Below, piece after piece: positions 13,806-51,297 of a stretch of 64,000 nt of DNA. The notes below the pieces were generated by a model that was not told where the DNA came from, did not search any database, and saw only the letters and a list, made by a program, of their open reading frames with translations. Numbering within the stretch: the first letter of the stretch is position 1; each line of letters opens with the position of its first letter. Origin of the DNA: an uncultured Gammaproteobacteria bacterium (lineage in GTDB: Bacteria; Pseudomonadota; Gammaproteobacteria; CAYGNG01); contig CAYGNG010000005.1 in NCBI GenBank assembly GCA_964351225.1, positions 12,976 to 76,975 of the forward strand. The letters run 5' to 3'. The position numbers and the translations under genes are program-made.

Positions 13806-13857
13806 ATAGAGCCTGTTTACCAATTGCTCTTTCGGCTGCAAATGTAAACAAGCCCTA
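13806..13857. repeat. Palindromic MITE/REP-like element, copy 1 (slightly degenerate), immediately 3' of rnpB
   Basis: tagagcctgtttaccaattgctctttcggctgcaaatgtaaacaagccctaa matches the ~51-bp family consensus TAGGGCCTGTTGACAATTGCTTTTTCGGCTGCAAATGTCAACAGGCCCTAA. Confidence 0.8.
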
Positions 13858-13883
13858 ATGGGTATCCTTACGCCTTGTACATA

Positions 13884-14222
13884 AGTGAGTTGGCCGATAA
13901 GCCGGGTTCTGTCGTGGGCAATCATTCATCTGGGACAAACGTCACCGTTTGCCTCGTGCGACCTACCCGGATCCGACGCGGGCCACGTTATAGATCCCTA
14001 TTCGGTCTTGCTCCAAGTGGGGTTTACCCTGCCACGACTGTTGCCAATCGCGCGGTGCGCTCTTACCGCACCATTTCACCCTTACCGTGTTACCGGCGGT
14101 ATATTTTCTGTGGCACTTTCCGTAGGTTTACACCTCCCAGGCGTTACCTGGCACTTTGCCCTATGGAGCCCGGACTTTCCTCCCCTTACCTAGATAAGAA
14201 GCGACTGCCTAGCCAACTCGAC
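13884..14222 (-). ncRNA. rnpB: RNase P RNA (bacterial type A) rnpB
   Basis: Minus-strand sequence contains the universally conserved stretches GGAAAGTCCGGGCTCCATAGGGCAAAGTGCCAGGTAACGCCTGGG (P4 region), …AAGGGTGAAATGGTGCGGTAAGAGCGCACC… and 3' …ACAGAACCCGGCTTATCGGCC…, colinear with E. coli M1 RNA; the + strand ORFs called here (13875-14312) are spurious. Confidence 0.9.
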
Positions 14223-14250
14223 GCCCATTGTAAAGAAATATTACCAAAGA

Positions 14251-14985
14251 TCAATTGGAAGAAATGTATTTTTCTCTTTTTAATCGTTGGCTTGGAAAAC
14301 CCATACCGGTAAGCATCGCCACCACCTGGTCTATCATATTCGGATTGCCACATAAATAAATGACATCATGCAGATTATCTAGGGACAAAGTCTGTAGTGC
14401 CGCTTGTACATAACCATGGCGCGCATTGGGTAGTGTTGCTGGCGGCGCTTCTTGGCTTAAACAAGGGATAAATAGAAACTCAGAATGAGCTCGGGCAAAC
14501 TGAAAAAAATCTTCTGCGTATAATAAATCTTGCGCTGTTCTCACCCCAAAAATTAATATCACTTGACTGCCATCGTTTTTAATCTTCTGGGCAAGTACCG
14601 GCAACATCGTGCGATATGGGGTGACACCCGTACCGGTCGCCAATAAAATAAATCGTTGTTCAGGGCGATCTGGCAATATCAAGCGACCAAATGGCCCCAT
14701 TGCTTCTAACTGCTCGCCAGGCTGTAATGCAAACAATTTTTCACTTGCTGCCCCCTCGGTAACCTGCGACACGGCAAATTCAATTTTATGAGGATGCTGA
14801 CGGATACTGGCAAGACTATAACTGCGCCGCAACAATTTATCCTCAAGCGGCAATAAAAGTGTTATAAATTGACCAGGAACATAACCAAACGATTGTTCAC
14901 TCTCGACAGTAAAAATGAAATGCTTCACGGATGGCGCTAATAAAAATGCTTGCTCTAAGGTGATTTGAAATGTTTTTTGAGCCAT
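14251..14985 (-). CDS. fpr: Ferredoxin--NADP(+) reductase-like flavoprotein (FNR family, FAD/NAD(P)-binding)
   Basis: 244 aa; RSYSLAS FAD-binding motif and LLATGTGVTP NAD(P)-binding motif typical of Fpr/FNR family. Confidence 0.8.
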   Translation of the reverse strand: MAQKTFQITLEQAFLLAPSVKHFIFTVESEQSFGYVPGQFITLLLPLEDKLLRRSYSLASIRQHPHKIEFAVSQVTEGAASEKLFALQPGEQLEAMGPFGRLILPDRPEQRFILLATGTGVTPYRTMLPVLAQKIKNDGSQVILIFGVRTAQDLLYAEDFFQFARAHSEFLFIPCLSQEAPPATLPNARHGYVQAALQTLSLDNLHDVIYLCGNPNMIDQVVAMLTGMGFPSQRLKREKYISSN

Positions 14986-15194
14986 ACGTTCCCATTTTTT
15001 ACGGTTAAGAGCGGTTGATCATTGTGCGAAAAAGTAGAAATTCTACCGCTAGTTTCCATCGATTCATACCATCGTCTTAAAAATTACGTAACTATTCAGC
15101 AAAAAGTCTGAATAGTTACAAAATTACTTGATCTCAACCACTGGCCACCTTGTATAATCCGAGTTCTGTGTGCAAAAGAGTTCATAAAATATCC

Positions 15195-48339: not shown

Positions 48340-49374
48340 CTCGGTTGATAAAAAATCGCCGCCCATGATATCCATCAACTCCAAAGCTCGGCCGCCACCA
48401 CGAGCCACACAAGTTAAAGGATCTTCAGCGATAATCACTGGTAATCCGGTTTCTTCCATCAATAAGCGATCTAAATCTTTTAATAAGGCACCGCCGCCAG
48501 TTAACACCATCCCTCGCTCAGCAATATCCGCCGCTAATTCTGGTGGCGCTTGCTCTAATGCCGCACGCACAGCACCAATGATTCCAGATAAGGGCTCCTG
48601 TAATGCTTCGAGGATTTCATTACTGTTCAGCGTAAAACTTCTTGGAACGCCTTCGGCAAGATTACGTCCTCGCACTTCCATCTCCCGAATGCCGCTTCCA
48701 GGAAAAGCGGCGCCAATCTCTTGCTTCACACGCTCCGCGGTGGTTTCACCGATAAGGCTACCGTAATTACGTCGAACATAATTTACAATCGATTCATCAA
48801 ATCGATCGCCACCAATCCGAACAGACTGCGCATAAACAATACCGCTTAAGGAAATGATAGCTACTTCTGTGGTACCACCACCAATGTCCACAACCATTGA
48901 GCCACTGGCTTCTTCAACCGGCATTCCAGAGCCCATCGCCGCTGCCATCGGTTCTTCAATGAGGTAAACTTCTCGAGCACCAGCACCCATGGCTGATTCG
49001 CGAATGGCTCGACGCTCAACTTGAGTCGAACCGCATGGCACACAAACCAAAACGCGTGGGGAAGGTCGTAAAAACCGAGTCTCGTGAACTTTATGAATAA
49101 AATGCTGCAACATTTTCTCCGTCACATAGAAATCGGCAATCACACCATCTTTTAATGGCCGTGTGGCGGTAATATTGCCAGGTGTGCGACCCAACATTCT
49201 CTTCGCTTCTAAGCCAACTGCTGCAACCCGCCTTGCGCCGCCTTCGCTACGAATGGCTACTACAGACGGTTCGTTCAAAACAATACCTTTATCACGTACA
49301 TAAATAAGTGTATTAGCAGTACCCAGATCGATTGACAAATCGTTAGAAAAAACGCCTCTTAACTTTTTGAACAT
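48337..49374 (-). CDS. mreB: Rod shape-determining protein MreB
   Basis: 345 aa; [26 protein letters not shown]… near-identical to canonical MreB. Confidence 0.95.
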
Positions 49375-49481
49375 GCTGTATCCTCACATGACGGTCTAAA
49401 TCTTGGTAGATTAACAATGGAGAAGATTTTGGGCAAGAACCACAGTATAATATTCCCCATTTTGTAGCAGGAGAGATTGCC

Positions 49482-49781
49482 ATGAAGATCGACGCACAAC
49501 AAGTAAAAGCTATCGCAAATTTGGCTCGAATTGAAATTGATGAAAAAGATATTGAACAATATAGCGAAGACTTAACAAAAATCCTCACCCTGTTCACAAT
49601 ATTAAACCAACACAACATGGTCAACGTGGAGCCAATGTCTCATCCGCTCGATGTTTCACAACGGCTGCGCCAAGATGACGTCACTGAAAACATAACAGAG
49701 AATGACCAATTCGAACGCTTGCAAGCCCTTGCTCCACGCCTTGAAAATCATTTATACCTTGTTCCTAAAGTCATTGAGTAA
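49482..49781 (+). CDS. gatC: Glu-tRNA(Gln) amidotransferase subunit C GatC
   Basis: 99 aa; …[16 protein letters not shown]…LYLVPKVIE matches GatC family C-terminus. Confidence 0.85.
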
Positions 49782-49791
49782 GGCCCAAAAG

Positions 49792-51249
49792 ATGCATCAC
49801 CATTCGCTCGCACAACTCGCGCAACAGCTGATAAATAAAACCATTAGCAGTGTTGAACTCACCCACTACTTTTTAGCACGGATCCAAGCACTGGATAAGC
49901 ATCTCAACAGTTTCATTACGGTATGCGAAGACGGCGCACTTGCAGCGGCAAAACGAGCGGATAAACGCCGTGCCAAAGGAGAAAACACGCCACTACTCGG
50001 GCTCCCGCTCGCTCATAAAGATATTTTTTGCACGCAAGGAGTCACCACGACCTGTGGTTCGAAAATGCTCGAAAATTTTGTCTCCCCTTACGATGCCACC
50101 GTCGTAAAAAAGCTGCGCCAAGCCGGCATGATCACGCTGGGTAAAACCAACATGGATGAATTCGCCATGGGCTCCTCTAATGAAAACAGTTACTATGGCC
50201 CAGTCAAAAACCCGTGGGATACCACAATGGTTCCTGGCGGCTCGTCTGGCGGTTCAGCGGCAGCGGTCGCTGCCCGACTCGTGCCTTTTGCCACCGCAAC
50301 GGACACCGGCGGATCGATACGGCAACCGGCGGCTTTATGTGGGATCACGGGATTAAAACCAACCTATGGTCGCGTTTCACGCTACGGCATGATAGCTTTT
50401 GCATCGAGTTTAGATCAGGCTGGCCCCATGACCCTCAGTGCCGAAGATGCGGCCATGATTTTAACGGCAATGGCTGGATTTGACCCAAATGATCCAACCA
50501 GCATCGACCAACCCACTCCAAACTATCAAGCCACGCTTAATCAAGATCTGCGTGGTTTGAAAATCGGTTTGCCCAAAGAATATTTTACCACCGGTCTCGA
50601 TAAACCGATCGAACAGTCTATTCAAGAAGCAATCCACGTTTTAATCCGCTTAGGCGCCACTTGCCAGGAAATTTCTTTACCTCATACCAATCTTGCGATT
50701 CCAACTTATTACATCGTCGCTCCCGCTGAATGCTCATCCAATTTATCGCGTTTCGATGGCGTTCGTTTTGGCCATCGAACTCAACATCCTAAAAACATTC
50801 ATGATCTCTACTGCCAAACCCGTCGTGAAGGCTTTGGAAGAGAAGTGCAGCGTCGGATCATGATAGGGACTTATAGTCTATCCTCTGGGTTTTACGATGA
50901 CTATTATCTGAAAGCGCAGAAGGCCCGCAGATTAATTGCCAATGATTTTAAAAATGCCTTTACCGAAGTTGATGTTATATTAACCCCAACCGCACCAACC
51001 ACCGCTTTTAAAATTGGCACCAAACAGCACGATCCGATTCAAATGTATCTCTCCGATATTTTTACCAGTGCAACCAATTTGGCAGGCCTTCCCGGACTCT
51101 CACTCCCGATAGCACCCGTTAACGGTATGCCAGTCGGGATGCAATTGATCGGTAATTATTTTGCTGAAGGCCGACTATTAAATATCGCACATCGTTATCA
51201 AGGTGAAACCACTTGGCATACCGCCATCCCAGCATTATTTATTAAATAA
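49792..51249 (+). CDS. gatA: Glu-tRNA(Gln) amidotransferase subunit A GatA (start at MHHHSLAQL)
   Basis: Amidase signature [13 protein letters not shown]; gatCAB order. Confidence 0.9.
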
Positions 51250-51297
51250 GGCTTATTGCCATTTGCAGCCGAAAAAGCAATTGTCAACAGGCCCTAA
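51247..51297. repeat. Palindromic MITE/REP-like element, copy 6, between gatA and gatB; its terminal TAA is the gatA stop codon
   Basis: taaggcttattgccatttgcagccgaaaaagcaattgtcaacaggccctaa. Confidence 0.8.

Follow-up and report, generated by a model that had tools for sequence, protein, structure and literature searches.

Here, we analysed a 64-kb stretch of DNA from an uncultured gammaproteobacterium (positions 12,976 to 76,975 of contig CAYGNG010000005.1, assembly GCA_964351225.1; hereafter the window) and found that it carries six copies of a hairpin repeat of about 50 nt. These six copies constitute a genuine repeat family with defined boundaries. The family is real, has not been described before and is of the familiar small selfish DNA type. 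Our analysis suggests that it is probably a lineage-specific, non-autonomous family resembling miniature transposable elements bearing inverted repeats (MITEs), with a size like that of repetitive extragenic palindromic (REP) elements, which is mobilised in trans and kept where it is neutral. The evidence comes from the repeat itself, from its coupling to stop codons and from a copy that is translated in frame as part of the protein YhdP.

An initial annotation of the window had proposed a dispersed family of short elements with terminal inverted repeats, occurring in both orientations and carrying point variation, and this description holds. The arm sequence TAGGGCCTGTTGACA, searched with up to three mismatches, gave 13 matches in the window compared to 1.1 expected, a number reached by none of 100 shuffled sequences, and repeat finding grouped six units of ~50 nt in both orientations. 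An nhmmer profile built from the six copies, which are 72-91% identical in pairwise comparison, recovered exactly those six full copies from the window with E values of 7.6e-16 to 2.6e-19; beyond them it matched nothing there but a weak left arm at 31716-31733 (E=0.2, 8.7 bits). Boundaries were set in TA...TA terms, giving a unit of 50 nt, or 51 nt in copy 1 alone. The six full copies located earlier were thereby retained, while some of their coordinates shifted by 1 nt (e.g. copy 1 to 13807-13857 and copy 6 to 48290-48339). The full copies, numbered 1, 2, 4, 5, 6 and 7, are listed below together with a candidate solo arm and two associated genes (dG, predicted RNA folding energy; aa, amino acids).

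13807..13857, plus strand: copy 1, 51 nt as its left arm is longer by one base, 24 nt downstream of the rnpB 3' end; E 7.6e-16
13882-14220, minus strand: rnpB, an Rfam match, neighbour of copy 1
17046..17095, plus strand: copy 2, first bases TAG forming the stop codon of the fakA/degV-fusion gene; dG -17 to -20 kcal/mol
31716..31735, plus strand: candidate solo left arm TAGGTGCTGTTGACAATTAG, 2 mismatches in 15, between rpoN and hpf
40529..40578, minus strand: copy 4, nearest to the consensus; E 2.6e-19; dG -26 to -30 kcal/mol, z about -8
42860..46720, minus strand: yhdP, AsmA2/TIGR02099 family, 1286 aa, open reading frame intact, host of copy 5
45953..46002, minus strand: copy 5, within the yhdP coding sequence and in frame
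48290..48339, plus strand: copy 6, degenerate, between mreB and mreC, weak stem; E 5e-16
51247..51296, minus strand: copy 7, between gatA and gatB in the gatCAB operon; E 6e-18

Once oriented, the 40-nt flanks of the copies are only 27-28% identical, a value expected of random sequence. This shows the unit to be self-contained; the earlier view that it stands on its own, rather than being a fragment of a larger insertion sequence (IS) or other repeat, was thus borne out. All six copies in the window are singletons spaced 2.3-23 kb apart, without doublets or clusters; two lie in sense and four in antisense orientation relative to transcription, hence without bias, and the unit has no coding capacity of its own. 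A half copy had additionally been reported near 31719-31738. A left-arm match is indeed present at this site, at the weak profile score given above; it directly precedes the ribosome-binding site of hpf and may be either a remnant or a product of chance.

Each of the six copies is able to form a hairpin. The 15-nt arms TAGGGCCTGTTGACA / TGTCAACAGGCCCTA enclose a 20-nt core as proposed initially, and pairing extends to 19 pairs in total: 15 bp in the outer stem and, beyond a single A.A/T.T mismatch, 4 bp in the inner stem (TTGC/GCAA). The stem thus falls short of the about 22 bp first suggested, and with its mismatch and an asymmetric loop of 10 nt (TTTTTCGGCT) the element is not the perfect palindrome it had been taken for. 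The asymmetric loop gives the element its polarity, visible in profile scores of 66 bits in the forward and 18 bits in the reverse direction. Predicted RNA folding energies were -17 to -30 kcal/mol for copies 2, 4 and 5 (z -3.9 to -8.1) and -13.4 or -21.7 kcal/mol for copy 1, according to the strand, while the degraded stems of copies 6 and 7 reached only about -13 to -16 kcal/mol (z -1.2 to -2.2). Standard base pairs fill 89.5% of the pair cells across the copies, and a compensatory change was observed at one pair only (G-C to U-A in copy 1), as also happened in 160-211 of 500 shuffled controls. A covariation test across the six copies thus gave no signal beyond shuffled sequences, indicating that the copies took their stem over from a master sequence and that it is eroding instead of being kept by selection. 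Arm substitutions number six and four in the copies within essential operons, at mreB-mreC and gatA-gatB, the latter four lying in the arm that adjoins gatA, compared to two and one in the copies between convergent genes. The weak stems of the two operon copies fit relief of a deleterious hairpin, albeit in a tiny sample.

But, where in such a gene-dense chromosome do these hairpins reside? Only ~2.9 kb of 63 kb in the window are non-coding, and four of the five non-coding copies (2, 4, 6 and 7) begin exactly on the stop codon of the upstream gene. At copy 2 this is the TAG of the fakA/degV fusion, and a convergent 301-aa open reading frame (ORF; 17103-18008, minus strand) ends 7 nt past the element. 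Copy 4 starts with the TAG of a 180-aa Gate-domain gene (39989-40531, plus strand), the convergent tldD (40592-42034, minus strand) ending 13 nt past it. Copy 6 is flanked by mreB (48337-49374) and mreC (47306-48235), both on the minus strand, and its terminal CTA on the plus strand is the TAG stop codon of mreB. The first bases of copy 7 are the TAA of gatA, which ends at 51249, with gatB following at 51318-52760. The window contains 262 non-coding TA sites, 37 of which belong to TAA or TAG stop codons, so that the probability of finding at least four of five copies at stop codons is P=0.0018 if all TA sites are equally likely targets. At copies 2 and 4, the convergent genes would have been ~6 and ~12 nt apart prior to insertion, and these narrow gaps partly explain why stop codons were the TA sites available there. 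The earlier placement of the copies at gene junctions, between convergent genes and downstream of rnpB thus stood, but copy 5 is not merely located inside an operon as had been stated: it lies within the coding sequence of yhdP. Copy 1, for its part, occupies the rnpB end of an unusually long stretch of ~830 nt from mraZ to rnpB (13055-13881), which otherwise holds only an unsupported 163-aa ORF (13278-13769) without family match.

The ends of the copies are compatible with duplication of a TA target. TA...TA bounds every copy fully except for the degenerate left end of copy 6 (five of six), and the distal TA together with the next base respells a stop codon at copies 2 (CCTA-A, i.e. TAA), 4 (CCCTA-G, i.e. 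TAG) and 7 (CCCTA-A, again TAA), as would be expected if the TA of the original stop codon had been duplicated. Further support is provided by copy 5, which, judged by alignment with homologues, is an in-frame insertion into the conserved protein YhdP. The copy is translated without interruption as 16 residues (YhdP 241-256, nt 45953-46000), and when the N-terminal 520 residues were aligned, the corresponding columns were empty in 40 of 40 homologues. Removal of 48 nt from yhdP yields ...NLVL-KQWLQ..., in agreement with the family pattern. In an AlphaFold model of residues 1-520 (mean predicted local distance difference test score, pLDDT, 86.8), the sole segment with a pLDDT below 50 comprises residues 245-249; it lies inside the insert, between a strand (228-240) and a helix (251-259), and on this basis the insert is predicted to form a loop that the protein tolerates. 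A protein search with element-encoded peptides gave no match, but was too insensitive to recover even YhdP itself. Since the yhdP frame was kept, the net gain must be a multiple of three, as is the case for 50 nt minus the 2 nt of one pre-existing TA, i.e. 48 nt; insertion of 50 nt without duplication, or with a duplication of 3 or 4 bp, would break the frame. An element of 46 nt that duplicates its TA target would fit both the net gain of 48 nt and the stop triplets formed anew.

Translation of the consensus suggests why precisely these sites are occupied. In both orientations, a T at codon position 1 leads to an immediate TAG stop, a T at position 2 leaves the frame open through the entire element and a T at position 3 leads to a TGA stop after four codons. 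With one open frame and two stop frames, the survivors observed are exactly the harmless classes.

Following this argumentation, we propose that the unit is an element of ~46 nt (GGGCCTGTTGACA-20 nt core-TGTCAACAGGCCC) flanked by duplicated TA. A transposase encoded elsewhere in the genome would act in trans and insert copies at TA dinucleotides in either orientation, and in a 95%-coding chromosome such copies would persist only where they are harmless. Where the TA hit is that of a TAA or TAG stop codon, a stop would be rebuilt, because TA-G is then read at the element end. A copy inserted so that the T falls at codon position 2 would be read through as 16 extra residues, as in yhdP, since 48 nt are gained and the frame is open in both orientations; the remaining phases would create premature stops and be lost. 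As a side effect, a strong RNA or DNA hairpin would be placed at the end of the upstream reading frame, where it probably dampens translation termination or, by analogy to REP elements, protects the mRNA 3' end. A bolder version, which we regard as doubtful, is that the element may be built harmless, with a stop triplet at each end (TAG...CTA), a net length of 48 nt and one open frame per orientation, and that it may be targeted to TA(A/G) stops, possibly via translation or transcription termination, instead of just surviving there. If true, the element would be a mobile hairpin homing to stop codons and systematically rewiring gene 3' ends in a highly compact genome.

Comparison of orthologous loci, which the initial annotation had suggested for defining empty sites, supports insertion. 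The nearest relatives available keep the synteny of mreDCB and gatCAB, but are devoid of the element at both the mreB-mreC and the gatA-gatB junction. In all relatives compared, the last residue of MreB is the same (..DFLSxE*), and copy 6 is therefore located exactly at the ancestral stop codon. By this sequence comparison, the copies behave as insertions relative to homologues. Neither the repeat family nor analogous hairpin families were found in ~50 kb of the nearest relatives. Two junctions of relatives lacking the element carry inverted repeats unrelated to it: TTAGGAGAA...TTCTCCTAA between gatA and gatB (sequence L004, 9893-10001) and CGAATAAACA...TGTTTATTCG between mreB and mreC (L007, 3026-3176). 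Hairpins at these operon junctions may thus be recurrent.

Several observations weigh against a MITE-like family mobilised in trans. The stop-codon statistic was formulated post hoc and relates to five events. The TA belongs to the palindrome itself, so that only a true empty site in a close relative would separate target duplication from the inverted repeat, and the nearest relatives available for comparison are only ~70% identical in GatB; the earlier notion that the terminal TA is compatible with a target-site duplication thus gains from the 48-nt in-frame gain and the regenerated stops, and is weakened by the membership of the TA in the palindrome. In MITEs, the terminal repeats are normally the conserved part, but here the central 20 nt vary less than the arms (5 changes in 120 positions versus 19 in 180; Fisher p=0.05). 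No autonomous element, transposase gene or gene for a REP-associated tyrosine transposase (RAYT, a Y1 transposase) was found in the 64-kb window. Another 12 kb of this organism, covered by three short contigs from the Logan assembly of run ERR3534985, contain no copy. The density of copies along the genome may be uneven.

Could the copies instead have spread under host selection for a function, not by selfish transposition, as regulatory modules, i.e. as a brake on translation termination, a protector of mRNA 3' ends or a barrier between convergent genes? We consider this unlikely, even though the start of four of five non-coding copies on a stop codon speaks for it: E. coli REP elements less than 16 nt from a stop codon are described, in a passage of PMC12306157 that cites Liang et al. 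2015, as lowering translation of the upstream gene. The close convergent pairs at copies 2 and 4 would have had no terminator before insertion, and the unrelated hairpins of relatives at the same two operon junctions would likewise fit such a role. However, covariation preserving the stem is absent among the six copies, the operon copies are decaying, and one copy is situated in coding sequence, where no such role applies. Orientation is not preferred either, and a mechanism of dispersal would still be needed.

Signals for transcription were also not apparent, contrary to the expectation that copies might act as terminators or promoters. No T-run follows the element at any copy on either strand, and the copies are therefore not canonical intrinsic terminators. 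A terminator scan reported the full element hairpin at none of the three copies in 40-52 kb. It gave a match overlapping copy 4 (40590-40565), which we rejected, as its 9-bp stem is unrelated and the loop of the element itself makes up the T-rich tail. The arm does contain the TTGACA hexamer noted earlier for its likeness to a -35 box, but the hexamers at a distance of 17 nt, AAATGT or AATTGT, match a -10 box in only 2-3 of 6 positions. A promoter scan likewise showed no enrichment, with 19 promoter-like sites in 12 kb compared to 22 expected, and only weak 9/12 matches touching copies 5 and 7.

A REP-type element, moved by a RAYT (TnpA-REP) acting on single-stranded hairpin DNA without target duplication, appears somewhat less likely still. 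REP elements measure 21-65 nt, form stable hairpins and can stabilise upstream mRNA or terminate transcription (PMC6006769). Our 50-nt unit falls within this range and shares with the REP elements and bacterial interspersed mosaic elements (BIMEs) of Enterobacteria and Pseudomonas an imperfect palindrome, a stable hairpin and a mostly extragenic location right after genes. Centre and loop are as well conserved as the arms, and a TAGG at the 5' foot bears a faint resemblance to the guide tetranucleotide GT[AG]G. The GT[AG]G foot itself was not found: ahead of TAG on its 5' side, the six copies have A, T, C, T, T and T, never G, and TAG is paired within the stem instead of lying 5' of its foot. 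REP elements further differ in that here TA...TA ends agree with the arithmetic of a 2-bp duplication, whereas a 50-nt insertion without duplication would have shifted the yhdP frame, which was kept; BIME or REPIN doublets and clusters are missing, all copies being singletons, and no Y1 transposase gene accompanies them in the window.

It is very improbable that the copies represent binding sites of a dimeric DNA-binding protein or targets of a site-specific recombinase such as those of IS110/IS1111-type elements. Inverted half-sites of 15 bp with a conserved spacer would suit such a function, and in Coxiella IS1111 enters QMITE2/REP-like copies (PMC5896051). Nevertheless, our copies are found at gene 3' ends and in coding sequence rather than in promoter regions, none in the window is broken by an IS, and they behave as insertions. 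An assembly or chance artefact, which a source resembling a metagenome-type assembly without close relatives might suggest, is next to negligible, as the statistics are far beyond chance, the copies differ by point changes and lie in intact gene contexts, and an independent Logan assembly of run ERR3534985 (contig L001) matches the window from position 51267, in the middle of copy 7, onward.

We thus retain a MITE-like family mobilised in trans as the preferred explanation and compared it to known systems. TA-duplicating MITEs such as Correia/NEMIS of Neisseria, Nezha and RUP derive from IS630/Tc1-mariner elements. No parent IS is known for the element described here. Its general architecture agrees with that of Correia/NEMIS and similar MITEs, which are non-autonomous, possess terminal inverted repeats, occur in both orientations, are transcribed together with their neighbours and form long hairpins (PMC10969869). 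Those elements, however, are 100-200 bp or longer and contain internal sequence, often with integration host factor sites or promoters, while here little exists beyond two inverted repeats and a 10-nt loop. MITEs are defined as shorter than 500 bp, without coding sequence of their own and with terminal inverted repeats of about 4-30 bp (PMC10969869), features which the 50-nt element shares given its lack of coding capacity and its 15-nt repeats.

The likeness to Rickettsia palindromic elements (RPEs) drawn initially turned out to be apt. RPEs of 100-150 bp (PMC1779305) are found in intergenic positions and also inserted in frame in genes of conserved proteins, which gain a peptide and are not destroyed (PMC1779305, PMC10969869), just as copy 5 is a palindromic repeat adding an in-frame peptide to YhdP in a gene-dense genome of intracellular type. 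RPEs differ in being alphaproteobacterial sequence families with longer conserved peptides, whereas the present element adds 46+2 nt in a gammaproteobacterium, has no sequence similarity to them and is intragenic in one of six copies. Within the order Legionellales, the intracellular Coxiella burnetii harbours QMITE1 (~400 bp) and QMITE2 (~190 bp, with direct repeats of 7-9 bp); QMITE2 is mainly found in 3' untranslated regions, overlaps the C-terminal 1-10 bp of several genes and has short, REP-like versions (PMC5896051). The overlap with gene 3' ends is common to QMITE2 and our element, but the QMITEs are much longer and show no sequence similarity to the 51-nt consensus.

The earlier remark that the element could not be matched to a described family was supported by searches of several collections. 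Rfam, at gathering thresholds and at E<=10, returned only rnpB and noise for the window, and BLASTN of the consensus against PLSDB plasmids gave no more than two matches, both partial and without significance (E 0.3 and 0.9). A degenerate 29-nt core matched once each in the GTDB species representatives and the JGI metagenomes; these matches lie at the same position of near-identical ~6.6-kb Spirochaetota contigs (metagenome-assembled genome, MAG, and ENA), have no palindromic arms and were discarded. The single match of an arm-spacer-arm pattern in IMG/VR was an unrelated palindrome, and a full-text literature search for the arm sequence yielded nothing relevant. Contig breaks were considered as a proxy for copy number and abandoned: it is plausible that copies cause assembly breaks, as one Logan contig starts inside copy 7, but other Logan breaks fall away from copies.

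From its sequence, we read the host as an uncultured, Legionellales-like gammaproteobacterium. The window is core chromosome, in which we identified the dcw cluster, rnpB, mutH, murA, rpoN-hpf-ptsN-hprK, pmbA, tldD, yhdP, mreBCD, gatCAB, miaB, phoH, ybeY and corC. The closest GatB proteins are 65-70% identical and stem, where named, from MAGs labelled 'Legionellales bacterium' or 'Gammaproteobacteria bacterium', while the closest YhdP is only 23% identical. Large ORFs of 301, 728, 1205 and 1002 aa (17103-20285 and 52833-59559) have no Pfam or NCBIfam match, and just outside the window a neighbouring Logan contig of the same organism (L011, 8522-10942) encodes an 806-aa ankyrin-repeat protein. 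These orphan ORFs and the ankyrin-repeat protein form an effector-like repertoire typical of an intracellular bacterium. The 1002-aa ORF contains a repeat tract of TCTTCC/TCTTCA type near 58913-59025. In the 301-aa ORF, a tandem 21-nt repeat of ~4-5 units ATGCTCTTGCTGTAAGTGTGC (17349-17453) is in frame as a 7-residue repeat.

Other features of the window deserve mention in their own right. The fatty acid kinase system normally has its FakA and FakB-like parts on two proteins. Here they are fused in the 632-aa ORF at 15150-17048 (plus strand), with a FakA/DAK2-like kinase domain at residues 20-347 and a DegV/FakB-like fatty-acid-binding domain at 350-627. In the intergenic region between this gene and a divergent ferredoxin-reductase-like gene (14251-14985, minus strand) lies a palindrome rich in AT, with arms of 18 nt around a loop of 8 nt, which has an operator-like look (15082-15125). 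A second hairpin of 51 nt, unrelated to the family and rich in G+C, is present at 52772-52822 between the convergent gatB and 1205-aa orphan ORF; it has 20-nt arms CTTCAGCGCACCCCCAGTGG / CCACTGGGGGTGCGGTGAAG, an 11-nt loop and a dG of -44 kcal/mol (z -6.5). It occurs once in the window, lacks a T-run and could be either a member of a further palindromic family or a bidirectional 3'-end structure.

With our results, the known MITE/REP-like repeats of bacteria gain a hairpin element that is very small, bounded by TA and derived from a Legionellales-like lineage so far unexplored. They further provide a clean case outside Rickettsia of a palindromic repeat tolerated in frame in a conserved envelope protein, YhdP. 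At least four genes take their annotated stop codon from a copy of the family, and the copies could serve as markers for strain typing. If the coupling to stop codons holds genome-wide, the family would offer a natural system in which to study the influence on translation and operon polarity of hairpins located at termination codons.

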